The notes under the pieces are model-generated. The model saw only the letters and a list, made by a program, of their open reading frames with translations, had not been told where the DNA came from and made no database searches. DNA of 64,000 nucleotides, from contig NC_047027.1 of the NCBI RefSeq assembly GCF_902652985.1, positions 34,038,001-34,102,000 of the forward strand, given 5' to 3'. The translations under genes and the position numbers were made by a program. This DNA comes from Pecten maximus (lineage: Eukaryota). Of this stretch, positions 1,519 through 58,400 are shown one piece after another. Each line of letters opens with the position of its first letter. Within the stretch, counting starts at the first letter, position 1.

Positions 1519-4500
1519 ATGGATGTGCCATTTCTGTTTTCAATTTTGGTAACACTCCATATATCTGGTAAGTTTTTAAACCTTGTTATTCTAATGTAAA
1601 CAGTGAAATATTGAAAATAATATATTCTATAAAAGTGATATTTTTCTAATGAAAAATATTTCTTTTCCTTATATTTGTCACTTGTGAAATATATCATTTT
1701 TTCCTGATTAGACCAATCAAATCACTGTTGGCAAACGACAATGAAAGAAAAAAATCTGACCCGGTATTTTTTTTCTATAAAAAATGTGATAGATAGAATG
1801 TCTAACAATATCTTCCGTAATACCAAAAAGAGATTTCATTCGTTTTGCTAATTATATCATATATTGCTATTTTCCCATTCGTGCTGCGCATCAAAATATC
1901 AAAATATTAGCCTCACTCGAGAAATACATTTAGTATTACTGAAGAGAGTGTTAGATATCCTGTATATATTGCATTATATAAGCTACAGCACATGACGATC
2001 ATAACTGATGTTTTCTGACATTTCTTGTATTGTTGTCAAGGTTATGTTATTTCATGCCATGTAATGTCATGTCGTGTCATGTAATGTCAGTTTCTCCTCA
2101 TTTTATCAGTATTTAGATAGATTTGCGATTTTGTTTGCATGTCAGTATTTTTGGTGATTAGTTAGCTTTCTCAAATACTGTAAAATGAAAATATATACAA
2201 TATACATTTATGCAGTTTAACTCCTATATCTCGTTATTACAACTACAACCCATGCTTGCATGAAAATGAAGATTGCATCATACAAAGTTAGCATACAATA
2301 GCAATACTAATTTCCTTGATATTTAGAAAGTTTCTACTTGAGGCATTGCTACTTAGTACAATATGTATGAACTACTGCATAATTATAGCATTCAATTGTA
2401 TTTATTGTTGATAAAATTGAATAATTTCCATACTTTTAAGATACTGTTATTATAATCATGGTTAGTAAACAATAATATCATTTTCATTGATCGCTAGTTA
2501 AAATTAATTAATGTTGTTTTATTTCCAGGTGTCATGTCCATGACACCAATGATGCAAGGTATGAACGCTGATATTATGAAGGACATCATGAATCTTCGAC
2601 GAAAGATAAAGAACCACCAGAAGACACTCTCTAATAAAGGAACAGCCAAAGAGAGCAACAGCATACTGCCTGCAGCAGAGATTGCTATGCGAGAATTTTT
2701 CACGAATGATGGCAAAACTCCAGCGAGTACAAAGACGTCTGATAAGAAAAAATCATCAAAAAAAGATACAACAAGGAAAAATGTCAAAATACCAGATGTA
2801 CCTGCAACACTTAAAAATGTCGAAGCTTCACACACGAATACGGTTCCAGTTGAGAAGAAAGCAAATAATGCAATGAAATCGAAAAAGCTGTCAAAAAAGA
2901 CGAGTGAAACAAAAACCAAAGACCAAACTCCTCAGGAAAAAATTACAGGTCCATCTGATCAACAATCAAGTAGTAAAAGTGATACAACAGGTGCCACCGT
3001 TGCCAAGACGACAGCTAAGTCTACATCAACATCAACCAGGCGATCACGCAGGAGATCGTCAAGACGAAGGAAGTCTTCCAGAAAATCAAAACAAAATACC
3101 ACGCCATCGCCGAGAACAACAACACAAGCTAATCCTGCTGCAGCTGCGCCTACAGTTCCCAAGGCAACCGCCATTGATACGACTCCACCTGCTGCTGCAG
3201 CACAAGCGCCAGGACAATCAATGCGGACGACAATGACCCACTTATTTAGTGAAGGTCCAATGCTAATGGCATCAATGCTAGCGCAGGTATACCCGCAGTT
3301 AGTACGGCTGCTGGGTGGCGCCCGAAGTCAAAGGCCGATGATGGACCCTAATATGGCAGTAATGATGCACGAAGAACCATATTTCAATCAACCAACTATT
3401 CAAGGAGATGGGTTCGGCCAAGTTCATACAGCTAACCCGTCTAGACCTGGTCAACAAAGATCAACGAAGAAGTCATCATCGACTTCAAAAACTGTACAAG
3501 CTGGAACAAATCCTATGCAGATTTACATGCAAAGGGAACTGTGTTCCGAGACTCCCTCTAGATTTATTAGGATGTGCAAGACGACAATGGATTGTAAACA
3601 TAAGATGAAGTGCTACTCGGGATACTGCTGTGCTAGGAGCCATAGGCATGCTGAGATGCTCGGTAAGTGTCTTTCGTTTATTTGTCTCACCATTCCCGAT
3701 CATGTAGGTTTTGTTTCCTCCCACAGTAATACTCCTTGCGCGCTTCCATCCGAGGAAACAAGAGTGATTATAACTCTGATACTGTATGATACTTATGACA
3801 TTTTTTTATATTCAACGGAAAAACATTCAGAATCGTATGAATATCAATTATCTACAGCAGTTGCTAGGTATGCATAGCTCACAAACGGTATCAAAAGCGC
3901 ATCTGATTAAGAACACTACTGTATGTAGTAAAAAGGCAGAAAAAAACTTATTCCAACATAACCCTTATTCTAACTTATTATCGAAAGAAAGAGCGGAAAT
4001 TAACCAAATAATGTATAGATCTGCATAAAGACTCTTGAAATGTAAACGGAGAATAGAACCAGATGTACGGGAAGAGTAAGCGTCATCGGCTTCAACGGAG
4101 ACACCCGCGATACAAAGGTCGAGTTTGGGTTAAGCAGATCCTAAAATTGCTGTTGTGACATAGAGACTAGTGACTACTAGGCTGAATAGTTAGCATCATC
4201 GAATACGTCACGAACAATTTATCTTATATCGCTGTAGGACTAAGACATTATCAAACACATCTCGAACAATTTCATATCGTTTTAGGACTAATACATTGTC
4301 AAACAGGCTTCGAAAATTTATATACATCGCTCTAAGACAGGGAATATTTCAAAATCATTATATAAACCAGGAAAATGTGCTATTGTCCTCACAAATCTTC
4401 GTCCCCCCCCCCCCCCCCCGAAATCAAAATCTGCCTCGTTTGAATCCTTACCTGATTCCTATTCATTAATAGAAAGATCCGTTCGGATTGGTCGATATAA

Positions 4501-10191: not shown

Positions 10192-13100
10192 TCATTTCTT
10201 CCCGATTACCGGAAGTCCAATGGCGTCTGTGCATGTATTAGATCGATACTGACAGCTCCCGACGACGGCGTCGAACACGAGATTATCCGGACATGGCCGA
10301 ATGTAGGTGTAGCCCTCCGAACAGCTGGCGAAGTAATGGCAGTTATCACAGGTATGGTAGTCACCGTTAGATCTGTGGTGACAGTCGTCTGCACTGCCGA
10401 TACAATCATCTAATGACAACAAAATGTATGGCTATAGTAAATATATCATGTGTATCTGACCTCGACATGAATTAGGATAATATGGCAAGATGTCGTCGCC
10501 AGCACGTCTGTATAGACCTTAAAATGGCATCATTTAGTTCTATATTTATCGAACAAGTTATATTGAAGAAAGGGCAAAACATACTGATGTCACTATATAA
10601 TTAAAGTAAAAGCCAGGTTTCGGAGGAGGTAGAAAGCCGGAGTACCCGAAGAAAAACAACCGGCCTACGGTCTGTACCTGGCAACTGCCTAATGTTTACC
10701 AGGGAGGTAATAAAACTTTTAAAATGCAAATAGCACAAGTAAAAGCAATACAAGTTTGGGCAGTACACAAAATCAAAAACACCCACAAAAGCCAATACAC
10801 TTCATTTGAATTTTTTATCTTTACTCTCTAAAAATTGATTGGCAACGAAACAGACCATGAAAAAGGTCAGGTACAAGCAGAATTCTTTCACACATATTTT
10901 GTTATGAACGATCACGATCTTACACAAATTTATATAAAAAAGACGTGGATTCAATAATACGCTCCAAATAAATCCAGAAGCCATGAGAAATTGAAAAATA
11001 AAATCCAAATTTCGAGATCTGAAGGACTGGATAATATCCATCCTATGGTTCCAAAGGAGACTTCCGATATACATGTAATATGCAGACCGTTATAAATATA
11101 TTAAACATATATTATATTGATACTGAGAAATTGGCCCAAGAAGTCTGAAATATGATTATGGTTAAAAAAGAATAAGAACCCCCCTTTTTGGCAGGAAATG
11201 GGTCATTAGTAAATTCCCAATGGAGCTCCATATCATGTACATTGTATCATGCATACAAAACATAAAAAGTGACGTCATTATATGTAACGACGATTTTGAT
11301 TGGGCACAATTCATCCAATGAAAGTTTCCGTCCAAGATTTCAAAATATTCATAATTTGTTACCAACTAAATTGCTTACTTCAAAAATATTTAACACATAC
11401 CAAAGTGTATTCACATTTTTCTTCGTAACATAAATTATCATTCACGTTGATATTTTGTCAATACACATTTTTCATGTTGGTACAAGATAAAGCATACTTA
11501 CGTGTAAGGGGCTTGTAGCTGGATGTTGTTGCAACATATGGCAGTCCTAAACATAGAACATCAGTGTTTGTTTACATTAAATATAAGTAACATATATTAA
11601 GATGATATTGACGTTATACCAAATCAGAAAACTATCTATAAAGACAGTTCCTAGCTTCAAAAGGAAATTGTTCAAGAAATATAACAAATTTCCCAATAAT
11701 TTTATTACACTTTATTTCTGAAGACAGTTCCAAGTTTCATTGGGAAATATTACAAGAAACATGGCAGACCTCATAACAATGTAATTGCGTTATATTTATA
11801 AAAACATATCCTAGTCCAACAGTTATATATCTCGAGAAACATGAACATCTTACTTGTTTGTATTTGCGCATTGACTATTTTTGTGATTATGCTAAATTTC
11901 ATATTCATGTACATTGATATGTTTTCATCTTCAAATATTACCTTTCATGTTGCGTTCGATTTTGGCCGATACATATCATATCTAGATATACTAACATATT
12001 TGATGGAATTTTTTATACATTTGAGATATACGAGCAGAAAATGTGTCAAATAAAAATAATGATAATTCAAGACATAAAAAATCAATAATAAATATAATCA
12101 ATATCCAACTTTTTTTTCTTTGTATATATACATATATTTTTTTTTCTTATTTTATTTTTAATTTCATATATTTTTTTTTGTCATTTTGTTGTCATTTTTC
12201 ATTTTTCTTTTTTTTTTTTTTTTAAGTTTTGACTTCATCGATATAAATGTGAAATGGTGTAATCAACTTGTACTTAAACTGTGTAAATGTTTTCGATACT
12301 AACTGTAACATTCCGGGAATGCCTTGTCGTCAGTCCACGTGTGAGTTGTAAGGTCACATCTTTTGTTGACCAGGAAGTCTCCAGTAGTAAAAGCCCACCC
12401 GTCCTTACATAAAGCCGTACACACCCTGGGATGATAGATACATACATATTACGACAGGGGATATAAATAGCTGAGAGGTTATCAACACAGTTATCTCCCT
12501 TCCAAGTTAACTTCCATAACATTAGATTATACAGCCAAACTTTGTTTTATCGAATTCTAATCATTCAGATATTTTCTCTAACTCCCAGAAAAAAACCAGT
12601 TTCGACAGTAGAAATGTTACATAAAGAAACTCGGTTATCTCGAATGCTCGGGATATCTCGATATTATTATTACCCCTACACTGACTTCGCGATAACAAAG
12701 GCCAACAATTACACATTCGAGTAAAGTTCTAATGATGCAAACGAAATGTATGTAAGGATAGCATATTTTTAAGATGCTGAAAGAGGAACGAGATATCTCC
12801 TTCGAGAAAGCAATATATAAATAATTATAAAGCGCATTTTTTTTTAAGTTAAAAAATATAACTATACCTTCAACTTTAATGTGCAGACCGATATATTAAC
12901 ATGATGAAGGTTATAATCAATTGGACTTTTACTTTTTAATTTTGATAAGAATGATTCCTTGAACATTTCGGAAAAGATCACACATTCAATAAGGTAACCC
13001 TGAGGAGGTCACCATTTTGATTTACCTACAGCGATGTGCCCCTGTCCTCACAGCTTATCACGCCATTTCTCGGAGGCAGCAGTGAGGAACACGTTGGTGA

Positions 13101-16100
13101 AGGTCTTGTCCCTGTAACAAAAGTTATCTCAATTAGATTTTAACGACAATAAACAAACATCAGGCGTATCCCTGATCGTTTCCCATTGCCTGAGTTGCGG
13201 CTTTAGAACATATGAGATTTGTGTCAGAGGAGGACTTATGCCATTCACTCTTCTATTTCGAATATGACCATCCCATTCTAATCATAATTAAACCTATATT
13301 CGTATGTTTGATTTGAAGATGTGCCCGAGACATTCATACTTACCAGATGTGACAGATGTTGGAGTTGTGTTACTGATGAAGCTCGTAGTCAATACAGATT
13401 CTGTAAACAAAGCATTATAAACAATGGTATGGTAGTATAAACAATGCATTATAAACAATGGGATGGTAGTATAAACAATGCATTATAAACAATGGGATGG
13501 TAGTATAAACAAAGCATTATAAACAATGGGATGGTAGTATAAACAATGCATTATAAACAATGGGATGGTAGTATAAACAATGCATTATAAACAATGGGAT
13601 GGTAGTATAAACAATGCATTATAAACAATGGGATGTTAGTATAAACAATGCATTCCTGATTCATCTTCTCAATACAAGGGAGATAACTAAGACAAAACAA
13701 AACTCAAAAATGACATTCTTTTGTACCACACTACTGTTCAATTATGTGATTACATCACTGTCAGCGATCACAAAAGGTGGGTGTGCAGTTTAAGCTAAAA
13801 ATAACTATTTATAAGTACACTCTGAATGAGAAATGTTTTACTCAAAAATAGATAAAAACACATATATTACAATATGTATCTGCTGCTGTCAAATAAACAA
13901 CTGTGAATCTTGTTAAATTCGGCATCAAAGCGAAATTTGTAATGTGTTTTTGCTCATATTGAATTATCAAAACAACTTGATGTTATTTTAGACCAATAAG
14001 TATCCAAAATGCTCACTTTTTGGAACAAATCCGAAATATATTCTGCTAACCTTTTAACAACTTCTTGAAGACCAATCCCTATCACAAACAAAATTGCTTT
14101 CCTTTGTTTTTTGTAAATATAATAGGATTATTTAGCGTAAACATAATATTGCTTAAAAGCAGATGTCACCGGGGAGTCTTTCTGACAATAGAGGTAATCG
14201 ACATGCTGTCTCGGTCAAAGGGTACTTACAAAAAAGTGATATTGTAGCTTATAATGTACACCTGCTTTTTATGACCGTCTTGGTCCGCCATCTTGAAAAG
14301 ACCATTCCCAATTACGGGTACTCGACAGAGTTTATGTTCAGCTAGAACGTATCTCACCCATTTCTTACATCTGTTAATTGTTCTATATTAACTAAAATTT
14401 TAGAGATGCCAATATCTTAGAAGAAAAAAAAATTGAAAATGTTGAAACTTTGAATTGGTTACATAAAAATAAGAAAGTTGGGTGTTAATTGATTCGAATA
14501 ATCTTAGACGTCTTAAGACTTTATATGTATACAAACCTTCGCTGGCAGGACATCCTAGTAGTTCAAACCTAAGTCCAATATGGTCCTTCCACGCTATAGG
14601 GTTAATACGAACATAACGGGCAGCGAAAGGACAAGAAAACCAGTTGACCTCCTCATTACACGTGTCTGTATTTCCACTGAAAAACTTAACACAGGTCAAC
14701 TTGTTTATTTATCATAAGAATATATTACATTGGATAAGCATACTACAATGTCGACATAACAAGAAAAGGCAAGTACAAGCAACATTTTTTGGACAACGGG
14801 TAAAGATAAATCCATGTTCGAACCGTTACCCGCACTGGACAATTCTTGATGTAAGTCGTTTTGAGCACTGGTTAAAATTATTTTATAATAACTGTATAGA
14901 GTATATAAGTAATATGATCCCGTATCAAAACATATAAGGACTTTTCCTGCTATTTAAGTTACGTCAATATCTATTTTGAACGGTCAAGCATGAGAATATT
15001 TGATCAGATTTTTTAAAGATCCGGTACCTTGTCAGCCACCGACTCGTCCCCGTATGGTACAAACGACCGTCCGTCGGTGCTGTAGAGAACTCGGAACCTA
15101 GTAACCACGTCCTGGGCGGTGTCACCGGAAATTACGCCCCTGCCTTTTGTAATGATGCCTGTTATTCGGCTGACCTTGTCCAGCTTCACCTGAAAAATGT
15201 TCCCATTTGTCTTCACAAACACATACACGTCTATTTTAGATATATGAGTATGTTATCGGGTTGCCATATCCATAAACAAAATCAATTTTAACGACATATC
15301 TAAGTACAGGTTATATTTATTGTTAACATCTTTTGTTTATTTGGGAGACCAAGATTCATAAAAATGATGTTTGCAAAAGATATATGTTATATGTATACAC
15401 TTTTGTTACTTGTGTGAGCTGCAAGAAAAATAGATTATGCCTTAATATAACTTTTCTTATTGTCCAGTGGCATATTCAGTTTATATTGCAAAAGACAATA
15501 TGTCCGCCCTGTGGTTATTGTAGGATTAAATTCAAGTTGTATTTCTTTGAATCTCGCGGATTTCAATCCTAAAGATTTATATAAATATTAAGCATTCCAA
15601 ATTGTCCAAGAGTTTGGACATGAAATTAAAATTTTATAATTGAAAAAAAAATGCATTGCGGCATTTTCACAAGTTCTTTCTTTAAGGAATGTCCGTCATT
15701 TACCCTCGAACAAATATTTCAACGCAAATTTAACATAACAATACATATGCTTGTGGTTGTGGTTGATTTCGTGTAAAATTTGTCCCAATTTACTGACCTG
15801 AATAAACTGGCCGAGGTCATCGTTTGCTGGTCGCCACCCTCCACTCATAAACTGACCGTTGATATATTCGGGGTCAGAGGTTATCCTTGCCCTGTCTGGA
15901 CCAAAATATACACCGGCTAGCCCTGTCCAGGAACTGGACGCTGTGAAACTGCCATTATCAATGTCGTCACTTCCGGAAATAAGTCGTTCTTCACATGTCG
16001 CTGTCGAATTAGACGTGAACTTCATTTAAATGACAATATCTTTATCTTCTCTATCCCTTATCACTACTGCAGTCGAATAAGAATTCACATGTGTGAAAGA

Positions 16101-19100
16101 ATCATTTAATTCTTCATCAATACCTACTAAGGATTCCTCAGACTTGTGAGAGGTCTAGAAGAAGGTTTTAAAGGATCTTATCTTTAATCTTGAAATTTAA
16201 TAAAAGATACGCAAATATCACTCCAAAATATTCTCGGCAATGCTTTTGTTTAAAGACGTTATATTGTGTAACTACCAAGACGGACTATATAATGGAAGTT
16301 ATATGAAGGCAAATTAATTATCATTCGAAGTCAACATCAAAGACAGTTGGGCGCTTAAAGAGTGAATTAAATGTAGTATAACTTACAAACACAACGGGGC
16401 ACGGAATTACCAGTATACCACGTGCCTGTCAGGCGGTCACAGATTCGCCGGACCGTGACGTCATGAGTCTCGAATGTAAATCCGTTAGTGCATTCGACGT
16501 CACAAACTCTGAATATGACAATGTATGTGTTCAGTATTGATAGAAACGCTCAGAAAGAAACAGAGATACCAAGACAATCTGATTGGCTAACCGATTGGTC
16601 AGTTATTCTTATCAAAACAGTGATGCAACGGATGTGAATTAGAAAAAATAGTAATATCAATAAGATTCACATAAAAGCCGATAAAACGAACAATTTGAAA
16701 ATGTTGATTTGTAAAGCCTACTAAAGATGAATATTGGTGCAAGGTCTACGATAATTTTGGGAATTTCCAACAAAAGGTTTCTACGATGGAACTTCATTGA
16801 TTATTCTTCCTCAGGGAAAGGGATCTGATCAAATTAATGTACATGTTTGTATATAGTCTGAAGTGTTAAATGTTTCGATAGTATAGACACCAAACCAGAG
16901 GCCGTTAAATTATCGCATTATCAAACTATTTCTAGACATTTATACTCACAAGTCCGCCCCGTGCTGGCGACACGTGACAGCTGCCATGTCACGTGATACA
17001 TTTATAGATCCACAGTGGTCTGTCGTGTTTAGTGCTGCCAAATAGATATATACAATATTTCATACTAATCACATTTTAGACAACATGTTTTACAAATATG
17101 AGGGCTGAAAGATATGCTGTGAGCCTCATATAGAAGGATTTGAATTTTGCCGGACATATTGTATCGTTTTTCCACATAGTCTCCTTCAGTATCTATACAC
17201 TTTTACCAGCGGCGTTTAAGGGTCTGAATGCCACTTTTATAGAACTCCTTTTCTTGGCCGTTCAGAAAGTCAGCCACTGCATGTATGACGTCATCATCAG
17301 ACTGAAAGTGGGTGCCTGAAATAGCTGTTTTCAGTTTTGGAAATAGACGAATGTCTAATGGAGCGACATTCAAATGAGACCAGTCCTTGGGTACACGGTC
17401 ATATACAGTCAGAGAATAGTAGGACTTAAAAAGAACATCCGTGAGTACCTCCTTCAATGCGAGGCGCACAACATATCAAATTTCCGTCGTATGTTATTGG
17501 CTAATTAAAGAAGTTGGCCATATGTTATGACTCAATCAAAGGCTGCATAGTACGACTGATGTTGGTACATTAATTCAAGAACATAGAGCAGGAAACGGTA
17601 GCGAAAAATGGCTTCATCTCCAGCACCATGACTGATTCAGAGGGAGCTTTCTTTAAAACAGATAAACGGCAAACTTGAAATACATTTTTTGGCACCAATG
17701 AAGCTTCTGCAGAGCGGAATGCCAATGGTGCGACTTGCCATAGATATAACAGGACCATTGCCAAGGACTGAAAGTGGCAATCAATATATTTTAGTTATAG
17801 CGGAGTACTTTACGAAGTGGACGGAGGCATTTGCTAATCAGGAAACGGTTCCAATCGCCACTATTTTGGTTGAAGAAATTGTCACCAGATTCGCCACTCC
17901 GTTGTCTATTCATTCAGATCAGGGACGACAATTCGAAAGTACTAATGCCTTTTAGCATAGATAATAAATACTTTTGAATCAGGATTATAATTGTATTGAT
18001 GTGTCATCTGAAAAGGTACATCCACCTATTCAGCATGCATTCAATCTTAACTTCGTTTCGTTTTTAACTGCATATCTGCATTTTGCATTTACCGCTACAT
18101 TGACCAATCACATACTTCATCTTGACCAGTAACGCCACCTGTTGCGTCATATCCGGGACCAAAATAATATTATACGGCTATGCCGAAAAAAGGAAAAAAA
18201 ACATAATGCAACACAGAAGACGCGTGTACAATGTATCGTTCTGCAGACGTGGTAAGTGAGACCAGGGCCACTCCAGAACACGCTCTCAACGAAGATAAGA
18301 GTAAGCTCTTACTGGGTATTTACGTTAAAATACCACCACAGAGACAGTTTTCATAGCATTATTAAATTTCTACAGAAATCGCTTAGTAAGATATATTTTA
18401 CTGTCACGAAATTCATCAAATTAGGATAATCCATGAATGTCCGAATAAACATATCTGCGACCTACCGTGGCAGGGTTGGAACGAAAACATCCCGTCATAC
18501 CAAACCCCACCGCTGATGGTACAGACGCGCTTGGCGTTGTCTATGGCAACCTGCATAGCGTATCCATGGTTACAGACGGCGGTACACACTCTGCAATACC
18601 AAATACAAGTCAGAATAAATGTATTATTGTATTTCTGTCTTTACTAACATCAGGATACAGGTCCAGGTTGTTAACTGGCGGGAAATATTTAGAGAATGAT
18701 ATGTCCGTATTTAAAACATTTGATAATGCTGATTTGATAGCTAAAATAAAGGATCTTAAACTTTAACGGATCTTTAAGACAAAAAAGTATAATAATTAAA
18801 CTCGACAGGGGTTTGTTATTCTCTCATTTCCTTTAATAGTTTCGGTACATATGTCCTTAAATGGTTTGACACTAGAAAAAATATTTTTGATAATTTAATT
18901 AAGTAACCATTTAAATTATTGACAAATTGGTTAGCCATATTTATAAAAAGAATTAATCAACATGGCGATTATCATTTAAAATAAGGCTCCATTACCAAAC
19001 AATTCTACAATACAAGGACACAATGGGAAATGATAATATAACAACAGTTCTGAAGCCTCCTTACACACTCACAGTTCTGTACCGTCCTGTATACACTTGC

Positions 19101-22100
19101 TCATTCCGTTTGTGGGTGGGCTTGGTAGCGTGCAGTTCCCAACGACAGCGACTAAAACATTTCACAAATATTTACTATTGATAAACAAATATAGGTTTCT
19201 ATATCATCTGATCTTAATATTATAATAAATTTCCAGTTTAAAATGAATGCCATTACGTCAATCAGTATTAACGCCAATAAAACGAATCCCGAGGATGATA
19301 AAATATCATGGTTGTTAATTTCACAAACATGATAAGCATCTCGTTTTAACTACCCATTTATTTATTTATTCATCTGCTTATCACAGTTAAACATTGAGAT
19401 TACAAGTCAGGATGTGCCCATATGTAAGTCGAAATTTAGAAAAGCTACAAAGACATTCCTGTACCTTTACATGCAGGGAGGACATTTCCGGAATCCCACT
19501 CTCCACTGGTGACGTCACACGTCCTCGTGACCGTGGTCTCATGGCTGACGAATGTGTAACCATCGTTACAAGTCCCGGTACAGATCCTTACAATAAATAC
19601 ATATATTGCCAGTTTTTGTTTAAAACTGTAACTGGCCTAGCCTAAATACTATCTGAATTACTTTTGAAGATTTTTATTTATTTATTCCATTTGCTTATTT
19701 ATTCATTCATTCATTTGTTTATTATTCATGCTTTTATTTATTCTGCATTGTGTTGTGTTTTACTTTCGAAATTATGAAGAATACTTACTTTATGTATAAA
19801 TACACTTAAACTTATATTGATAGTCAAGGGGAGGTAACTCACAGTTTCGTTCCCTTGTGTTCACATCGAACAATGCCGTTTCTCAGGTGGAAGTGCCGGT
19901 CGACAATTCTCACTACTTAGAGATTCTGTATAATAAAAATATTGGTATGGATATATATCTGTTTTCTCGATTACAGTTCTGATAAGAAGATATTGCTATG
20001 TATGAGCATACCTATAAGCGGACCTACATATATACAGTTGTATGTAAATTGCATTCAGGCACAAGGGGTTTTAATATATATGTAGAATGTATAAAATGAG
20101 TTTAATATGTTTTCTTTGAGAACGCTTTTGGCAACCGAAAAAAAGAGAATGATGACGAACGAATTGAAAATGCATTGAAGAATTTTTTTTCTTTACATGT
20201 TAGTTTTTTTTTTTTTTTTTTTTTTGTTTTGTTTTTGTTTTTGTTTTTGTTTGTTGTTGTTGGTAAAAGTTGCAGCATATCCTCATTTCCTTGGGGTCAT
20301 CTTTGCTGCTATTATTTAAGCATTGTAATCATTACAAAGTAAGCCATGTATTCGTTGAATAACACAGACATCACACGATATGTTATTGACGCCTGGTATC
20401 CTTGTTCCATATGCTTGATATCTACCCGTGCACTGCGCATGCGTATTTACCTACTGACAAACACTGGGGAAGTGAATTTCCGCCATTAAACCAATGACCA
20501 TCAATGACGTCACATACTCTTCTTTCCAACACATTCATAGACCGGAACCGGAAACCGTCTTTGCAAGTAGCCACGCATGACCTGTAAACCAGAACAGTTA
20601 GTCAGGGATAATACGAAATCTTGTAATCAGCATCTTATCGAAACGGAACAGTTTAGATACTTTAGATGAGGGGTGTGGTGGGATGGGGTAGGGTTGGGGG
20701 TGCTGGACGGGGAGGTGGGGTGGAGGGTGGGGTTAGGATTTGTATAATATGGAGTGAAGATGGGCATATTCTATATATAATCTTCTTTAACACTTTTCGC
20801 GCTGAAAACATTCCGCTAATTAATTTGAATGTATTACCAAATTTAGTTCACATTTTTATTACAGAAATCAGTTAAAACTGAATGTGTACTACGTTTCATG
20901 ATATAAGCTTCACATCCTAACATGGTTTGGGTCCTTTATGATATATCTATTATAACGTTAGCCTGAAACGTTTATACATGTGCTAACATTAGCATATAAC
21001 ATTTATACCTATATGAAATATATGTGATAACATTAGCATATAACATTTATACCTATATGAAATATATGTGATAACATTAGCATATAACATGTATACCTAT
21101 ATGAAATATATGTGATAACATTAGCATATACCATTTATACCTATATGATATATCAGTGATAACATTAGCATATAACATGTATACCTATATGATATATCAG
21201 TGATAACATTAGCATATAACATTTATACCTATATGAAATATATGTGATAACATTAGCATATAACATGTATACCTATATGAAATATATGTGATAACATTAG
21301 CATATAACATGTATACCTATATGAAATATATGTGATAACATTAGCATATAACATTTATACCTATATGATATATCAGTGATAACATTAGCATATAACATTT
21401 ATACCTATATGAAATATATGTGATAACATTAGCCTGTAATATTTATCCCTAAGTGATGTTTATCTGAGTCTACTTACAGGAAGTTTCCACTTTCCACACA
21501 AGACACTTTGCCATTTTCAGGGGGAGATAACTTCTCGCAGACAATCTTTGTTGAAACTGTTGTCAACGCCCCTTGGGTAACTGAAATTGATAAAATAAAT
21601 AAATAAATAAATAACAAATATGTGTTTTCTTGTACCTGGAATATGGTATTATGAGTGGATGACCCACTTGTGTTTCACTTAGGTAAATCTTCGCTTTGTA
21701 TAGGTTGGATAAAACTTGAGTCGTCACCCCTCGATGTTGTGAATATTGTGACGTCATCAATATGTGACGTCATGTTTTTGGCGATGTAGTGAATATATTT
21801 AAGGATTAACATCAAATATTTTTTCTGTTATACAGTCATAACAGAAAAAACTGGAGTGTACTCTAAATAAACCGCGAAGCGGTTTATGAAGAGAGTACAC
21901 TCCAGTTTTTTTATGTTATGACTGTTTAACAGAAAAAATAATTAATGTTAATTCTTATAATTTAATTTCGTCTTATACACACCAAGATATTTCACTTTCT
22001 TTGACGAACTCTTTTCTGTGATAAATTATTACGCAACGTCATCAGCCAATCAAAAAAGACGTTACATTTCGCAACGTCAAAAATTTTGTTATGGAGGTAT

Positions 22101-24424
22101 AACAAAATTATTTCAGCCAATGAAAATGCGTGTTTCATACAAAATCAAATTATACAGTAATGACGTCATGCTATTGATTCTGCAGTGAAACATGTGTATT
22201 ACAGTGTGGCAAGTCTACAATTCTAATCAAAGTTAGACTTATAATTTCATCTTCTCAACGATACACTGCAATAGAAGATCTAACAACATCCCGCTGAAGG
22301 TCATCTCAGATGTCATTATGCAAGTCACCCACGAAACATCGCATTGCCATGGCGGTCGAAATCAACATCGTACCAATAGCTTTTACCAATGCACATTATG
22401 CACTTACGTAGTATTTTATAAAAACAATATGACTGGGCAATAAAAAGTACAGTTTGTTCCCTCAAATGATAAAATATGTGAAGGTGCAAATCAAATTATA
22501 TGTAAAATTTAAAAACTCATTTCTTCGTTGTTTTTTCAAGGTATTGTTGATAGAACTTCTTTTTCTCGGATGATGACAATTTGATCACGGCTACGTCAAC
22601 AGTCGGTCAAGTTACGGCAATTTTCATCGGCGAGTTATTCATTCGTTTGCCAAAACTGGGTATGATCTTTCAGAATATCATACTTATTTTTAGTAAAATT
22701 GTCAAACAAAGAAATTGAAAAAATGAAGCAAATTGATGGTTGAGGGACACTTTTGCCAGAAATTTGGTAGTGATATGAGAGAAAACGTTATGTGTGAATG
22801 TAGCCGGGGGTATCCTACCCCCGGGATCACAAAATGTAGTTAAACCCTCGGCTTTCACCACATTTTGTGATCCCTCGGGTGGAATATCTCAATCCTAAAT
22901 GCACACATATGAAAGAGTCTTGTAATCTTACATAGCTATCTTACATGTGCAATCTCTACCAAGCATGGCGAGATATGAGAGAAATGTTTGTTTCTCGAAT
23001 TGTATTACAGATATTGAATTTATAAAACTAATTAATTAATTTCAAATGCGTTTTAACGCTGATTCCAATGCGAACTGCATATTAAATTTTCCGAAAGCAT
23101 ATACATGTAATTATATATTCACAACAAGAATATCCTGTAATGTACTTATCTTAATCATATGTATATGTATGTAATACATTCATATACGTGGACGCTGGGA
23201 TTGTACTAAGTCCCTGTGGTACTGAATATAACGTAATCTTTCAGTTTTATTTACTTTCCTTATCACAGCTGTTGAGCTGTCAACATATCAGTAAACAACG
23301 TAAATATTTATCTTACGTGTACCAACAGTCATCACCTCATTATCACTTATCAGAGTTTCCTCCCCTTGTTATCGTTACGTTTTATGACGTAGTCAGAATG
23401 AGAGTACCCGGATATTTTATCTTATTGACATTTCAGGGAAGAATGATAAGTCGACATACAATTTGTTTTCAAAGCAGGTGTTTATTTACTATATCGCTAA
23501 TGTCAATAAATAGATAATATTATGCCTGTATCATTCTTATTCAGAGTCCATCCCTCCTTCAATTTTAGTATACACTTAAGGGTATATGCTACATCATTTA
23601 ATTGTGTTTTAGGAGAAAAACCGGCGATATGCCTTTCGTCAGAGAAGTTTTATCTGCATCTTGGGCAATTTATGATCAGCTAGTGTTGAACTCAATTCGA
23701 TATGTAAAAGGTTAATTTGACTTAGTCTAATATAAATCATCTTTAAAAAGAAAAGAAAATATATTCAACTTCATTAGTGGTTTCAAGCTATCTTATCAAA
23801 TGTAGAAACAAACATGCTTTGTAGGAACTATGTCGCTTTTTTCTTTCGCTTCAAGATACATCAATAAGAAACAGTTAGAAATTAGATAACTATCACATTT
23901 GGAATGACTTAGGCATTAGTGAAAATAAATTGAAAATATTGAAATTATAAAAGGAAAAATTAAACTGCATTTTTTTCAGAAATTAAGTTTTATAATGGAA
24001 CGGCAGAATGAAATCGTACACCAAAAGATAAATTCGTGACTTTAAATTTTCAGCAGAATTCTTAAATTTGTAGCTGAAATGCAACGACTTCAATTCCAGC
24101 AAAAATAGTCCATTATGATATACCTGTAAATTCTACAAGTGAAATATATAAAATATTACACGCAGATTTATACTAAAATACAATGTAGGAAAAAGTAACA
24201 AAAACCATGTTATAAGTATTTGTAGGAAAACATGCACATGTATTTAAAATACAGAAATATATAGATAGATGTTGAATTTATTACAAATACACAATATTGA
24301 GGTAAAAGTACACCATGTGAGTACATCAATGTTACGATTGTGTAGAAGTTTTCTTACCTGTGATTTTCTCAATGAAACCGAGGACTACAAATGTAATGGT
24401 GAACAAGTGGACAATGATCGCCAT
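10192..24424 (-). CDS. Gene A: secreted multidomain protein, signal peptide - 4x sushi/CCP - discoidin (F5/8 type C) - Ser/Thr linker - CCP - chitin-binding peritrophin-A domain (~650 aa if the frameshift is corrected)
   Basis: 17 phase-compatible exons (plus-strand coordinates, transcript order): 24358-24424 (MAIIVHLFTITFVVLGF.. signal); CCP1 21478-21580 + 20451-20581; CCP2 19843-19925 + 19465-19586; CCP3 19073-19151 + 18466-18590; CCP4 16950-17034 + 16387-16508; F5/8C 15798-16000, 15028-15189, 14537-14684 (GGWRPANDDLGQFIQV..ITGIITKGR..ARYVRINPIAW..GLRFELLGC); linker 13344-13400; CCP5 13030-13111 + 12304-12425; linker 11502-11546; ChtBD2 10192-10409. CCP motif C..PP.NG...C..C...C..G[FYW]..C..W..P.C. 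Exon 19843-19925 has one extra base. Confidence 0.85.
10613..10689 (-). mobile_element. SINE fragment (same family as 49676-49876)
   Basis: Reverse complement matches GGCAGTTGCCAGGTA..GACCGTAGGCCGG..GGGTACTCCGGCTTTC..AAACCTGG. Confidence 0.65.
13404..13654. repeat. 34-bp minisatellite, ~7 copies
   Basis: Unit ATAAACAATGCATTATAAACAATGGGATGGTAGT. Confidence 0.9.
17097..17370 (-). mobile_element. Tc1/mariner transposon 3' fragment (degenerate transposase C-terminus plus terminus)
   Basis: Minus strand reads APLDIRLFPKLK..SGTHFQSDDDVIHAVADFL..FYKSGIQTLKRRW*KCIDTEGDYVEK, typical of a mariner C-terminus; TA-TGAGGGC end at 17097; in-frame stop. Confidence 0.8.
17400..17945 (+). mobile_element. Gypsy/Ty3 LTR retrotransposon integrase fragment
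   Basis: RLAIDITGPLPRTESGNQYILVIAEYFTKWTEAF..EEIVTRFATPLSIHSDQGRQFES (rve core, both Asp motifs); upstream degenerate zinc-binding remnant VGLKKNIREYLLQCEA. Confidence 0.85.
20984..21433. repeat. 44-bp minisatellite, ~10 copies
   Basis: Unit TAACATTAGCATATAACATTTATACCTATATGAAATATATGTGA. Confidence 0.9.
21801..21956. repeat. Long imperfect palindrome (hairpin-type non-autonomous element)
   Basis: Arms ..CAGTCATAACAGAAAAAACTGGAGTGTACTCT / AGAGTACACTCCAGTTTTTTTATGTTATGACTG..; apex TAAACCGC-GAA-GCGGTTTA. Confidence 0.75.
22789..22909. repeat. Imperfect palindromic element
   Basis: GGGATCACAAAATGT / ACATTTTGTGATCCC arms with outer TATGTGTG / CACACATA. Confidence 0.55.
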
Positions 24425-28200: not shown

Positions 28201-29113
28201 TACAAAATGTATGCGAAACAAATGAGCTAATTATGTCTCCATGAAACATGCATTTTTTGTATGTTTTGTTGACATTTACAAACAGCTTAACACATTACAT
28301 GTCAAAAGCAAGACGGTTTGCAACGATACATACTTAAAATTCATCAAGTTAGTTCTGTTAAAGTGCACCATAGTAGGAATTTATAGGCTTGTAAAATATC
28401 ACTGTTTTGACTGGATTCCGCATTAGACAAGAACAATACAAAACAAATAAATAACTAAAAATATATAATTATTTGAAAAAGGATTAACACGATTAATGAT
28501 GAAATACTTCTGATGAGAGCTATTTTCAGCGGAATCGCTTTCAAAGTCGTTCCAGGAGAAAGCGCATAAAAATTGTCCTTCGCGGGAAAGGGACCACGCG
28601 TTATGGGCTGTTAAGTCAATTCAACATTTCAGAAGTTCCTGGAGATACCAAATGTATATTTCTTTTCATTTTCCTTCGTAAATAATCCTGTCCTATAATG
28701 CAATAGATGGAAATGTAAACAATAACAATAATAATAATAATAAAAAAAAAAGATAAAATAAAAACGATTCGTTTCATTAAACATCATTAAAATGGAAAAC
28801 TCAATTAAGATGTTTTAAGAACCATTCCGTTGTGCCATTTCCAATTCATAATATCACGTTGTTGTCTTAACTATGATGTTACAAGCGACTTTTGATTGGT
28901 ACAGAAAAAAAAAAAAAAAAACCCGAGGGAATATTGTACCTGTGTCATCCACTGGATAACAGGCAGGTAGTGCGATACATGTAAGTGTTAAACTAAATTC
29001 TGATTCGAGTTAAAGGCTATTTACAGATATATTTGTATGTGAAGATATCTTAAGCAAGCCAGGTAAGCATTTAACAAGTTGATGACATGACTAGCATGTA
29101 AACCACGCGCGAT

Positions 29114-29260
29114 NNNNNNNNNNNNNNNNNNNNNNNNNNNNNNNNNNNNNNNNNNNNNNNNNNNNNNNNNNNNNNNNNNNNNNNNNNNNNNNNNNNNNNN
29201 NNNNNNNNNNNNNNNNNNNNNNNNNNNNNNNNNNNNNNNNNNNNNNNNNNNNNNNNNNNN
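29114..29260. other. Assembly gap (147 N)
   Basis: Run of N. Confidence 1.
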
Positions 29261-36575: not shown

Positions 36576-39500
36576 ATGTTCATGATGAAGGTAATACAAA
36601 GTAGCGTCGTATTCCTAGGTAAGTTATCGACAGTTATATTTCTTAAATATTTTATCTAACGAATGTAATTTCAACTAGACTTTAAGTTCAGGTAATAATG
36701 ATATTCATGTTCGTATTGTTATCCGCAATTATCTATAAACAGTTGTTCTAGTATTGTTAAAATCCTACTGTATTTGATATTCCTAAGCAAATTTTTGTTC
36801 AAATGTTACTCATATTACTAACTATCTAGTGAAGAAAGAACATAATGAAAACATTGTTTTCGTCTGTGTAAAGATTTATTATTTTGGCATTCCTAAACGT
36901 CTTTACATTTGTTCTATACGTTTCGATGGATTTCATGTTTATCTTGTTAATATATACGCAGGATTTAACCGATTTTGAGTTAGAATTTTGATATCGACTA
37001 CTCTTTCTTATGTCTGTGCGTTTAAAAATTCACAACCAGGTATACAGTAACAGAGTATGATTTCAACTTCATTAAAAAAATGATATCTTTGAATTAATTT
37101 ACATTGCCTTTTCACTGGGATCATTTTATTCACAACATTTTACCGATGTTATTAGCTATTTTGTAGAGGTAATGGAGATTGACATTCCTGACCAAATGTT
37201 TTTCTTTCCATCAATGGGATATATAAAATATTATTTTGGTATTCAGAAAAGACGAATATGTTTCATGAATTGTAATATATGATGACAGGTTATCACAACA
37301 GTTCTTCGTTACAGTATTTATATAGATGTATCAACTATAGATTAATAGTAGATATTATAGATATATGAACAAATACTGATATCTTAAATATGTTTCTGGA
37401 CATGGTCCCCACAACCGCTCACGTCATAAGTAACCGGGTGTACGGTTGACGGAGCAAATAAAGGGATTGTTTTAAAGTGCCGTGACGCTTATACACCGTA
37501 ACCCGGACATGGTAGCATCACAACCTTCCATGTCACATTATACTGACCATACAAGTCACTACAATCACCAATAAAAAGCTTAAAGTCTGGCGTAAGAACA
37601 CATTTACCAAAGTTATGGTTCAATTTAGAACCCAAAATTGGTATTTAAGGCAGTAAGAGAAAGCCAGGGGAAAATTTTTAACTGGCACAGGTCAGATCAG
37701 TTGCCGTTTTCTTTTCCTGAAGAATTGGCATAGAAGAAAACTTCGCAATTTCAACAATAAGTCGCCACTTACATAATGAAGTATGTACTTACCATCAATC
37801 CCTTGACTGCAGGATATATTTAGTTTACTGACAGTAATATTCCTATAGTAATAATCTGTTCAATATTATTTTCATGGCCAGTGCTATGTACTATATAATG
37901 TTTGGTTTTAGGTTGTAGGGTCAACTTTAAGAAAAAAAAAGATATATTTGCAGTTATATCTAGCATTTTTTTTACAGTGTTCTTTTTTTTCAAAATGCTT
38001 CAAAAATAAAACAAATGTTTTCCTGACACGTTGTAAACTAACCATGCTTTGGATCGATACTGTCAGGAAAGTAATGTTTGAATTGTGGGTGACATGTTAT
38101 CACTGACATCACACCCAGAATGTAAGTAACTAGGAATAGTTTTAAGATATACCACAAACTCGGATAAACGTTTAGCATGTAGTCTAAACACTGACATTAA
38201 TTCACAGTATAATACACAAAGATACACTATGTTTCTAGAGATTTAGGATGGCTCCAAGCTTTCCACATTTTTTGTTTAAATATTTTTTACATACTTTTTG
38301 CATTTAGAAACCCTAAAATATCGGTATGTTAAACGTCGCCACGGCATAGCTGTCTCTAGATAATCACTGTTTCATGTCTTAAAGGGTAGATACTGAAACA
38401 ACCCTGATGATAATTTAATAAATACAGTCTGGTAAGTGATAACATCAGAGCAAATTTTACTGCACATTTCAAGGGACATTGATGATAGAGTGATTAACAA
38501 GTTTTTGCAATAATTCACAATTTCTTAATCTGTTTCCTTAAGTATTTGAGAAGAGAATAATTATCAAACATTGGCAGGGATATCTTAATCCACGTGGAAG
38601 AGTTAGCATTAAACTATCCAGCCAAACTTTTACACGCGGTCAGCGATATCCCTGTCAACGGTACAGACCCATGCAAGAGTCTATTATTCTCAAAGGTTTC
38701 TACAAGATATTCAAAAAGCAAAAAAAAAAAAAAAAAAAGTCAAAAAGCTAAAATTACTAATGCGTTTATTTGTATGTCATGTATCTTTTCCTATGTGTTT
38801 AATGGTCTAAAGATGGTATCTCTTGTATAGATATAGAGAGTTAACAAGGAGATGCTACTGCATATTGTATTTTTACGCGAAAAAAAGAAACCCGAAGAAT
38901 TCTATGTATTACGTAACTTTCGGTCTTATAGGCGATCGTTTTGTGGATATGTAATTATTTGTTTGCGTTAATTAAATTTGATCCTTACCAATGGATGGTA
39001 TTTTATGCATTTTTGGGAAAAAAATAAACATATCAAATGTCGGTGAAACATATTTAATCCTTACTGTCCAAAATAACATGTTTTCGCTGTCGTGTTATCA
39101 CAAACATCGAACCCAAAGTACAGTTACCACGGAAAGTTGAAAGAAAATAGCCGTAAAAATGCATTGTATCTAGATTCCTTTCACAACCTATGAAGTAGCA
39201 TTGTTAAGCTGCAGAAAATGGAAGTGCACGTTGTCGGAAAAGGATAGCATATTGGCCCCGCCCACTTCCCACCAGATAAGGGAATCTAACTCCTCGCGAT
39301 AAGAATCCGTCCATATCCTTTATTTAAAAACATGCCTGAAGGAAATTAAAGGGCACAAAAGTATTTTTTATGTATTTTAACTCTTTTCTCTCTCTTATCT
39401 TTTACTACTTTGTTTGTGTCTATATAAAATGTGTGTGTTGTTGGGCAGAAAATATTAATCAATGAATCATTCCTCTTTTCAGCTGCCTTTGCTTTAGCTG

Positions 39501-55400: not shown

Positions 55401-58400
55401 TGCAAAATTGTCAATTTAAAAGGATTTATCAGCACTACCTTTACACCTACAGCTGAGTGATAGAGTTGCTGGTCCACTTTTCAAATGTTTATAACTCTAT
55501 AGGCTAATGAAAACTTATGATTTAATGATACAAACTGGGAACCATGTTTCCATTCAATCATCAGAATTTTATAGTGATGTCACTTTTGTATCCATGGCAA
55601 CTTTTTATTGCTTAAGATATTAAATATAAACCTTGAGTAAATTTTACTGTTTCTTGTTCACGGAGGTTACCAAACTACCAGAATGAGGTCCGTTCAGAAT
55701 TAAGAACTTTTTTTATTTCAGATTGTATTTGACGAAACATTTGTAAGCCTGATAGACAGTTACTTGCGCTATGCTCCTAGAACTCATGATGCCTTGATAG
55801 AGCTTCCAGTAGACACAAAGTCTCGCCATGATGAGGTCCATCGCCTTGTGTTCATGACTTGTCTTCGAATGGCAACACACAAAGAATCCAAGGTAACAAT
55901 TTTAGTGTGAATTTGTAGATACATTAATGTACATAGTAGGTATTTATTGAGTTTGATAATTAATGAACATGCATGTTGAACAATTCTAAAAAAACATTGA
56001 TGACTGCACCAATTTGTTTTGTGTGAATCTGTTAAATGTCAGTATGTGATACAACGTATGCTGGCAACTGAAAGAGATCTGATTTAAGGAAAACTCTTTT
56101 TTAATCTTTTTTTTTTCTTTGATAAAAGAACTATTGTTATTTAGACAAAACATATTTTTATCATTGTTCTCTTGCAGGAGGGGCTTTGATTCTGTTGTCA
56201 TCTATCTTTCTCCACAGTATAAATGTACAATATACAATATAAACTAATGGTGAATGAAGGTAGCATAAATGTGGAAAAAACATCTTATGATACAATAGGT
56301 ATGGAAAATACCAATTCATAAAACAATATTATTAAAATAACTAGAAGAACGTCTTGTACACAATCTACTGCAGATATTTCAAAAATATAAGCTGATAGAT
56401 GAGATTGGGTTTGCAAGTCCCTGTGCTTTGTAATTCAACTAGCTTTTGTTAAACCGGCGAATCTCTGTGACGAAAAGACAGATTTTGCATGGACTGCTAA
56501 TCAAAATTTCTTCTTGCATTTTACAATTTAGTTGTCCCTCTAGTATTTGCTAAAAAATTGAAATGTCAATGAACTTTGATTCTGTAATTGAACCCTCAAA
56601 TTAAATAAACAAACAAACAAATAAATACATAAAGATAAATAAATGAATAGAAAAATAGATTGATAAATAAATGAATAAATAAATAAATGGATTGATAAAT
56701 AAATAATGTCAGAATTGGTTATACTGGGATGTTAATTTGTACAGGGTACGTAACGCATTATGTTATTTCAACAGAAAATATATTAAAAAGATCTCTATTA
56801 GCAAACAGCTTATTCAGTTATTGTTAAGACAAATGTGACAAATCAGAGTTAAATATATGGTATTGTATATTAAATAAAGTCTTGGAATTCGAACTATCTT
56901 AGATATTCCAGGAGTTGTGTTAAAGATGTGACATGCAGAGGAAATTAATTGTGAACGAAAATATACCTTTTCCTCCTTTATCTATGATTTTTCGTTTGAG
57001 TACAGACACCTCTGTGATGACACTAGTGATCATTTTTTGATTTTTCAATAATCTTTGTACTTTGTGGTGTTACAGGAACATCACATCACTCCGAGCGTGT
57101 TTGGTGAAATCCTGTACGAGAATTTTCTGTTTGACATACCCAAGCTGTTGGACCTCTGTGTGTTGTATGGACAGGGTAACAACCAGCTGCTACACAAGAT
57201 GATTGATAACATATTCACAACCCAGCCAAAATATAACGACGATCTCCAGGGCACCATCCCAACAATTCTACAAGTAGGTGGTAAAATGATTCAGTGTTTG
57301 GAATATTCCTGTTAAAATCTAACCAGCCCAAGGATTTCAAAATAAATATTTTTCTAAATATGATTTGATTTCTGGTATAACTGTTAGTTCAAGCCTATGT
57401 CTGGTACCCCGAAACCCAAAGAGTGATTGGGTGGCCTATTGACATAGTGGATAGTGACCCAGTCTGTCAAAAAGGCAGCTGGGGTTCTTCAAAATCCCTG
57501 ATTGTATATGAGAGGTTACAGACAGTCTTCTATCAGTACTCTGCTATGAGAAGTTACATGCAATCTGGATACTGCAACATTTCCATGGACTTTTGTGTTT
57601 GAACCTTCATCAGAATTTAAAGTTTAGCATTTCTTTTATTTGTTGACAGGTGTTTGACAATATCCGAGCCAAGTGTGGTTTGGCTGATGTTAGTGGACTG
57701 ACCCCCAAGAAACTGACCGATCAAAGTCAGGAGAGGTCCGAGCTGGTCAGTATGTCCAGTACAGATTTCCAGGATGTTGTGTTTTATCTGGCTGACACTG
57801 GCACTACTCTGGCGAGTTTTTTAGAAGTCTACCCTCCAGCCTGCGTGCTATTCTTTAAAGAAGACTTTGTACACCAGTAAGTTAACAGATGTTTTAAAAG
57901 GTCTTAAAATACACACATTTCTGATAACTGACCATCTTATTTTATCATTTCTGCATTGAAGTGTTTTGACCATTTTCAGGGAGGAATATCATAGTTAAGA
58001 CATATAACCAGCATCGGATACATGATTTTCAATTAGTGGGTTTGGGGGCATGCCAAGTTAGGGTGGTCCGGCGATATTCCCCTGGGAAAAACTTTAGCAG
58101 GTAAATGGAAAATCCTGCATTATAGTGTATTACTTTGACAATTTAGTAATCTTCCAGTGATAACACGTCAAGTAAAAATGTTAAAGGAGTAAAATAGGCT
58201 TCCTGACCAACTTACCTTATATGTGTCAGGCATGTTAATGGAAAAAAAAGCAATTTTCTATTTCACACCTGATTTGAATTTGATTTTGTTAGCCATTTCA
58301 CCTACTTTTTATTGAATATAAATTATTTTTTTGTTACAATTTTCCTCATTTCTGTGAATAATGCATCTGTCTGTATTTGGGTAAATTGAAAATGTTACTG

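Follow-up and report, generated by a model that had tools for sequence, protein, structure and literature searches.

Which protein is encoded by a gene whose exons are, for the most part, too short to appear in a list of open reading frames (ORFs)? This question is raised by a stretch of 64,000 nucleotides from the scallop Pecten maximus (NCBI RefSeq assembly GCF_902652985.1, contig NC_047027.1, positions 34,038,001 to 34,102,000; hereafter the window), in which a preliminary description made from the letters alone had outlined a minus-strand gene, here called gene A. We found that gene A is a real gene for a predicted secreted protein, in which a signal peptide and four six-cysteine repeats precede an F5/8-type-C (discoidin) domain, followed in turn by a Ser/Thr linker, a fifth repeat and, at the C-terminus, a CBM14 chitin-binding domain. 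Our favoured reading, held tentatively and at somewhat less than even chance, is that the intact product is a soluble secreted glycoprotein of ~650 residues that serves as an adaptor, anchored on chitin within a chitin-protein extracellular matrix that the mantle most likely makes (shell organic matrix or periostracum).

A gene of seventeen exons with a break in exon 4

A scan for spliceable open segments, followed by manual modelling, gave 17 exons, as many as the preliminary description had counted, with 1954 coding bases from an ATG at 24424 to a stop codon at 10192 and GT-AG borders in all 16 introns (Table 1). The proof of this model is homology rather than AG..GT ends and an open frame: in the AT-rich DNA of the window, 21-144 of the 156-189 minus-strand AG..GT segments per exon length are open in some frame, so that segments of this kind commonly arise by chance. 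Exon 10 is 100% identical to the P. maximus protein LOC117340785 (P0001, 466 aa) and 75-82% identical to proteins of Argopecten, Ylistrum and Mizuhopecten. P0001 equals exactly the final 466 residues of the product modelled from the window, and the Argopecten orthologue P0002 (663 aa) carries the whole domain order, so that the arrangement first proposed (four CCP modules, discoidin, CCP, chitin-binding) is confirmed by this orthologue, by Pfam and by fold searches. With P0002 as tblastn query, 16 of the 17 exons were matched in order, exons 13 and 16 weakly; exon 1 was unmatched and is the least supported exon, its basis being the ATG, hydrophobicity and phase. The scallop orthologues of the gene A product are 74-80% identical.

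Each of the five repeats is divided between two exons (103 and 131, 83 and 122, 79 and 125, 85 and 122, 82 and 122 nt), and the range of 79-131 nt previously given for these ten half-repeat exons was correct. All pairs have phase 1 at both ends, and the split inside each, in phase 2, interrupts a Leu codon that lies two residues ahead of the third cysteine. Split exons for complement control protein (CCP) modules also occur in vertebrate complement genes. In a stop-to-stop ORF list with a threshold of 80 aa, two of the 17 exons (E10 and E12) are present in their coding frame, nine repeat exons sit within open stretches of 30-74 aa, and E4 lacks an open frame. The near-invisibility of gene A in the ORF list is thus real, but ordinary for an animal gene with short exons.

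That the repeats and the chitin domain belong to separate genes was rejected, because all parts occur together in single database proteins, and in three cases the contig is hardly longer than the coding sequence. P0005 (623 aa, all parts) lies on a contig of 2,343 bases, and P0163 and P0164 lie on contigs of 1,504 and 1,747 bases; since these are too short to hold introns, they are probably spliced transcripts that join repeats and chitin domain.

The exon order of the protein rebuilt in the preliminary description holds, but the exons do not join into one ORF, as a frameshift in exon 4 had been missed. This exon (19925-19843, 83 nt) is one base out of frame in comparison with two orthologues, P0002 and P0004, both of which read straight across the break; the two parts of the exon, 5' and 3', align with P0002 in different frames. 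The extra base falls in a three-base homopolymer run (19879-19881), and the upstream frame stops after 121 codons. As a consequence of the frameshift, the P0001 model begins at an internal Met in exon 6 and has no signal peptide. With an X at the break, the product from the window has 650 residues, which corrects the truncated database model from 466 to about 650 aa.

This is the one lesion in the 1954 coding bases. All 42 cysteines of the Argopecten protein are kept, and conservation is equal on either side of the break (49/64 and 54/62 positions in repeats 1-2; 54/65, 51/65 and 47/62 in repeats 3-5), which argues for an assembly error or a very young allele. We consider that the frameshift is probably a residual assembly error, likelier than a recent null allele. 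A published P. maximus genome is a long-read assembly, polished by homozygous edits only, from a species with a heterozygosity of 1.71% (PMC7191990), and these details are compatible with either origin. A true loss-of-function allele or young pseudogene, or a copy rescued by splicing, appears unlikely to us. The frameshift is present in the sequence, the database model is uncorrected across it, and the heterozygosity of the species would suit such an allele; the frame would also be kept if exons 4-5 were skipped or if a weak acceptor at 19915 were used. However, the latter would remove the first cysteine of repeat 2, a second lesion was not found in the coding bases, divergence is not relaxed, and a homopolymer run in an assembly polished in this way is where the extra base lies.

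Two further kinds of element lie in the introns of gene A. Intron 7 holds a retroelement integrase fragment (17632-17955, plus strand; Pfam rve E 2e-05, below cut-off) and an open stretch (17203-17475, minus strand) which, although without a Pfam match, we take to resemble the end of a mariner-type transposase. Minisatellites are found at 13404-13654 (34-base unit, 7.4 copies) and 20974-21451 (44-base unit, 10.9 copies).

Folds of the repeats, the discoidin domain and the chitin anchor

Judged by their predicted fold, the gene A repeats are CCP modules of a divergent six-cysteine type. They are 61-63 aa long, with a conserved Trp and six cysteines where the textbook sushi domain has four; Trp, Gly and four Cys are invariant in all five second halves, and two Cys are extra. 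The sushi identity proposed earlier therefore stands as far as the fold is concerned, but not as a canonical domain, as the cysteine number differs and all four scallop proteins remain below the Pfam cut-off. In these whole proteins, Pfam Sushi (PF00084) found nothing at E<=1; two of nine scanned half-exons of gene A and one of 14 further family members (E 0.018) matched it, all three below cut-off. When repeats of relatives were excised, five of 18 stretches matched Pfam Sushi (best E 1.1e-08), none of them among the four scallop rows. Proof of CCP identity by profile searches failed: a profile of the five second-half exons retrieved one, unrelated, sequence from the PDB, a search with a 19-repeat relative gave EGF proteins only, matched through other parts, and the match of the repeat profile to factor H was not significant (E 0.12). 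Weak Pfam matches to Flg_new_2, PHD-1st_NSD and DUF11 were dismissed as chance.

The full-length model drew nothing but discoidin domains in fold searches, and the repeats were therefore folded separately. The predicted model of Argopecten repeats 1-2 (18-row alignment) is all-beta, with a predicted local distance difference test score (pLDDT) of 89.1 and a predicted template modelling score (pTM) of 0.51. Foldseek gave 39 matches at E<=0.001, headed by MASP-1 (E 6.1e-06) and E-selectin (E 1.4e-05), and the best VIA match was MAP44, at a modest Z of 6.9 (<8) and a root-mean-square deviation (rmsd) of 3.0 Å over 63 residues. The case for the CCP fold is carried by the agreement of the rows and not by Z, and it is made on the Argopecten orthologue: all 43 Foldseek rows among the matches listed, and 48 of 50 VIA rows, are proteins that we take to carry CCP modules. 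The atlas's own model search likewise gave Sushi proteins in most rows; its feature search provided leads only (scores 0.88-0.90, Sushi on 21-49% of members), and a search of it with a whole clam protein scored 0.80 or less.

The rod of modules envisaged in the preliminary description finds no support in these models. The linkers between repeats measure 10, 7 and 8 residues, pTM is 0.37 for the whole protein in addition to the 0.51 of the pair, and the two-module rmsd of the pair from solved CCP pairs is 13-14 Å. Four tandem N-terminal CCP modules, with factor H, CD55 and CD46 among the fold matches, could also recall a complement regulator like factor H or CD55 that acts on a molluscan C3-like protein at chitin surfaces. 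We regard this as highly improbable: the N-terminal repeats number no more than one or two in most relatives, the modules are of the six-cysteine type with linkers of 5-10 residues, their best fold matches are modules of MASP and E-selectin, the similarity to factor H given above is not significant, and a shared fold shows no function.

Domains F5_F8_type_C and CBM_14 exceed their Pfam cut-offs in all four scallop proteins (for P0001, 73.9 bits vs 28.2 for PF00754, and 31.5 bits vs 22.1 for PF01607). The discoidin model superimposes on factor V C2 with Z 24.9 and rmsd 1.5 Å over 158 residues. Domains of the coagulation-factor/lactadherin/neuropilin class reach Z 24-25, whereas the CBM32 and fucolectin sugar binders reach Z 13-15 and F-type lectins, at Z 13.0-13.9, also stay below the coagulation-type domains. 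The modelled discoidin domain is thus of the former class rather than of the CBM32 or fucolectin class.

Closeness in fold and sequence to the C2 domains of factor V, factor VIII and lactadherin might indicate a lactadherin-like bridge, in which the discoidin domain would bind anionic phospholipid on vesicles or cell surfaces and tie these to chitin. In the clam relative P0036, hydrophobic residues align near the two spike positions of factor VIII C2, and two members are named 'Lactadherin' in databases, though such names are best-hit labels. We find this bridge improbable. The membrane-binding spike positions are hydrophobic in scallops and clams but polar or shortened in other members: of the spikes, the first is shortened or polar in P0005, P0025 and P0027, and the third is shortened in P0040, P0043 and P0061. 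A single C domain, the lack of an EGF domain and, in the scallop proteins, the lack of RGD also speak against it. Lactadherin (MFG-E8) itself contains two C domains and one or more EGF domains with RGD; for P0001-P0004, which show one F5/8C stretch, no EGF match and no RGD, orthology to lactadherin was rejected.

Scallop discoidin domains possess two extra cysteines nine residues apart, encoded by exon 12 (14537-14684), and most relatives possess one, some with an odd total. An extra cysteine precedes the conserved Pro in 14 of 16 members; P0061 is without it, and P0043, which is off-pattern, shows none. Judged from the sequence, an odd total points to a possible free thiol, and the extra cysteine is a candidate for inter-chain oligomerisation. 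The gene A CBM14 contains eight cysteines, and a Tyr after the last but one of these aligns with the terminal Trp of the chitotriosidase chitin-binding domain (E 0.054).

Hydropathy, by which the signal peptide was judged, shows one N-terminal hydrophobic segment and a polar C-terminus, with no transmembrane or GPI-type hydrophobic segment beyond the N-terminus. A membrane receptor was consequently rejected, and the idea of an immune receptor, which had been offered together with that of a matrix cross-linker, is not supported; cross-linking is unproven, with only one chitin-binding domain per chain.

Relatives in bivalves and neighbouring genes

The arrangement of one, two or four repeats, discoidin domain, linker, repeat and CBM14 was found in 16 proteins. 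Named members come from four bivalve orders (Pecten, Argopecten, Ylistrum, Mizuhopecten, Mactra, Mya, Dreissena and Sinanodonta; the Ruditapes protein is partial). Among the first 162 proteins collected, 13 combine repeat, discoidin and chitin domain and nine discoidin and chitin domain only; three three-part proteins were added later. In the three-part proteins the domain order is constant, and the N-terminal repeats number four, two or one where the N-terminus is present. A fixed discoidin-repeat-CBM14 end with a variable number of N-terminal repeats is as expected of a spacer or avidity array.

A quick tree was built from 76 of 150 discoidin domains, namely all those accompanied by a repeat or chitin domain, eight named others and 40 more taken by id, with P0114 dropped as partial; it was rooted at the midpoint and supported by the SH-like approximate likelihood ratio test (SH-aLRT), with no bootstrap. 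The 15 three-part proteins cluster at SH-aLRT 99, in a group that also contains the partial P0036, and the ten two-part proteins form a looser adjoining group (85); both together are supported at 99. The six-cysteine repeat also occurs at the N-termini of P0017 and P0024, which are VWD/C8/TIL/F5-8C mucin- or hemocytin-like proteins, and in a 19-copy array in P0028 (2009 aa), there without a Sushi call.

As Pfam misses the CCP modules of the family, searches for a Sushi + F5/8C + CBM14 architecture would overlook it, and public databases already contain its proteins under labels that say little ('uncharacterized', 'Lactadherin'). Our literature search found no paper on the family or its domain order, although supplementary tables of shell proteomes could list a member. 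Queries with five family locus tags gave no publication, those combining lactadherin, chitin and bivalve gave nothing on the family, and the excerpts of PMC8878817, PMC7333891 and PMC8696127 hold nothing specific to it.

Two paralogues of gene A lie in the window (Table 1). The discoidin exons of gene B, of 203 and 162 nt, have the same lengths as those of gene A; its intron after 40864 has a GC donor. In gene C, the CBM14 is recognised by Pfam (CBM_14 E 3.6e-09) and the repeat is split at the same point as the gene A repeats; a start exon was not found, and no close match was present among the collected proteins (best 31% identity). In the linked genes A, B and C, the same phase-1 modules appear in three combinations, which is consistent with duplication and exon shuffling.

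Elsewhere in the window, a plus-strand open stretch of 459 codons (2498-3877), rich in Lys, Ser, Thr and Met and with a cysteine cluster near its end, has no credible Pfam match and may encode a secreted matrix protein of low complexity. Exon-like open stretches that belong to another gene occur at 57052-57315 and 61405-61683 (plus strand), neither with a Pfam match; the first resembles what we take to be ASCC2. An assembly gap of 147 N separates genes A and B (about 29113-29260).

Table 1. Exons of gene A and its two paralogues in the window
Feature	Position	Strand	Evidence
Exon 1, ATG and hydrophobic signal-peptide-like segment, 67 nt, phase-1 donor	24358..24424	-	hydropathy peak 2.56 at residue 1
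Exon 2, repeat 1 first half (CCP-like)	21478..21580	-	exon model, tblastn
Exon 3, repeat 1 second half	20451..20581	-	tblastn; Pfam Sushi E 0.014, below cut-off
Exon 4, repeat 2 first half, 83 nt, out of frame	19843..19925	-	tblastn in two frames
Exon 5, repeat 2 second half	19465..19586	-	tblastn; Pfam Sushi E 0.0094, below cut-off
Exon 6, repeat 3 first half; internal Met is P0001 start	19073..19151	-	exon model, tblastn
Exon 7, repeat 3 second half	18466..18590	-	exon model, tblastn
Exon 8, repeat 4 first half	16950..17034	-	exon model, tblastn
Exon 9, repeat 4 second half	16387..16508	-	exon model, tblastn
Exon 10, F5/8 type C (discoidin) part 1, 203 nt	15798..16000	-	100% identity to P0001
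Exon 11, F5/8 type C part 2, 162 nt	15028..15189	-	Pfam E 7.4e-05
Exon 12, F5/8 type C part 3, 148 nt	14537..14684	-	Pfam E 6.6e-06
Exon 13, Ser/Thr/Pro-rich linker (S+T+P = 61% of linker)	13344..13400	-	tblastn (weak)
Exon 14, repeat 5 first half	13030..13111	-	exon model, tblastn
Exon 15, repeat 5 second half	12304..12425	-	exon model, tblastn
Exon 16, short Thr/Ser linker, 45 nt	11502..11546	-	exon model, tblastn (weak)
Exon 17, CBM14 (ChtBD2), eight cysteines, stop codon	10192..10409	-	Pfam CBM_14 E 3.4e-09, 37.1 bits, cut-off 22.1
Gene B, paralogue: signal peptide, F5/8C, Thr/Gln linker, CBM14, no repeats	36576..44803	+	P0106 match 96-100%
Gene C, paralogue: one six-cysteine repeat, Pro/Thr linker, CBM14, no discoidin	46883..49967	-	repeat profile E 6.3e-12, chitin-domain profile E 4.3e-17

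A proposed chitin-anchored adaptor among known systems

In the adaptor that we favour, the C-terminal CBM14 would dock on chitin, while the flexible Ser/Thr linker and repeat 5 would raise the discoidin domain off the chitin fibre, and the discoidin loops together with the N-terminal CCP string would bind a second partner, which may be a matrix protein or a glycan. A mantle-made matrix is favoured as its setting since shell proteomes contain CBM14, Sushi and FA58C, either combined or apart. An abalone shell protein combines a signal peptide, four chitin-binding domains, Sushi, galectin and FA58C (PMC6003135), PifCCP, with VWA, CCP repeats, CBM14 and LG, shows mantle-edge expression (PMC11291548), a snail shell protein described as 'similar to lactadherin' carries a CBM_14 (PMC4023409), and CBM_14 was present in shell proteins of 12 of 12 molluscs compared (PMC6368272). 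If the adaptor is real, in shell or gut, it would provide a small, expressible model of how mollusc proteins attach to chitin; for the CCP repeats of such proteins, the role is stated as unknown (PMC11291548).

Several observations weigh against this adaptor. The shell precedents differ in domain order and are known as likenesses rather than as orthologues, and the literature search found no expression, proteomic or binding data for the family. The gene A protein is not strongly acidic (D+E 10-11%), and with a single CBM14 it could link two chitin fibres only as an oligomer. The CBM14 itself is poorly modelled (pLDDT about 50), and the tip loops of the discoidin domain differ widely among family members, a pattern that suits variable recognition and a structural role equally well. 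The signal peptide is missing from three of the four scallop database models (P0001, P0003 and P0004): the Ylistrum protein P0003 starts at the same internal Met as P0001, and the Mizuhopecten protein P0004 inside repeat 1.

The variable tip loops could also belong to a mucosal or immune tether like the tunicate VCBP, with the CBM14 on chitin, be it that of the host's gut or gill linings or that of fungi or food, and the discoidin and CCP modules catching microbes or particles. VCBP-C likewise has a signal peptide, N-terminal recognition domains and one C-terminal CBM14, and it tethers bacteria on chitin beads (PMC6109156, PMC4757023). The repeat profile moreover matches the N-termini of the two mucin- or hemocytin-like proteins mentioned above. 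In a structure-sequence search, the CBM14 weakly matched a '25 kDa polyphenol-binding protein' (8in3, E 0.012), presumably from sea-hare digestive fluid. We nevertheless consider such a tether doubtful: Ig domains are lacking, the scallop orthologues are well conserved (identities as above) and gene A is a single copy in the window rather than part of an expanded variable array, the discoidin fold is far nearer to coagulation-factor C domains than to fucolectins or CBM32, and expression data were not found. A bolder version, to which we give little credence, would see in the family a mollusc set of chitin-tethered recognition proteins, a bivalve-mucosa counterpart of the tunicate VCBP, assembled independently out of CCP and discoidin modules; genes A, B and C would then be a preserved exon-shuffling series, and the extra discoidin cysteine would link chains into a covalent net on chitin.

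Among known proteins, PifCCP (Pif-BMSP) is likewise a secreted bivalve protein with Sushi/CCP repeats upstream of CBM14, but it has VWA and laminin-G and no F5/8C (PMC11291548), whereas the gene A protein has F5/8C and neither VWA nor LG. Membership of the Pif family was rejected, as VWA and laminin-G were without a Pfam match at E<=1 in the four scallop proteins. The abalone proteins CLC_3878 and idb_982 of Haliotis laevigata unite, as gene A does, a signal peptide, Sushi, an FA58C or galactose-binding domain and chitin-binding type 2 in one chain; with four to six chitin-binding domains and a galectin in an order unlike that of gene A, the likeness is one of domains (PMC6003135). Ciona VCBP-C shares with gene A secretion, N-terminal recognition modules and a single C-terminal CBM14, but has two Ig-V domains in place of CCP and discoidin, and its function has been demonstrated (PMC4757023, PMC6109156); no Ig domain was matched by Pfam in the scallop proteins.

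The individual modules have relatives of their own. The C-type domains of lactadherin, factor V, factor VIII and neuropilin share the fold of the gene A discoidin domain (Z 24-25) at about 32% identity, whereas gene A has a single such domain, no EGF, CUB or A domains, unconserved tip loops and, in most members, the extra cysteine before the conserved Pro. Hemocytin-, SCO-spondin- or gel-forming-mucin-like proteins, represented by P0017 and P0024, have the same N-terminal six-cysteine repeat and several F5/8C domains, but are 4,700-4,900 aa long with VWD, C8, TIL and WxxW, and their best F5/8C domains fall outside the chitin-anchored clade; VWD-C8-TIL assemblies are absent from the gene A family by Pfam. 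The best fold matches of the repeat are the CCP modules of selectins and MASP, and selectin CCP modules have six cysteines as well; the gene A repeats differ in lying below the Pfam Sushi cut-off in scallops, in their long linkers and in being joined to no lectin, protease or membrane part. The arrangement found in gene A is new, while its modules and its chitin-anchor logic are all known, and it is not a new kind of system.

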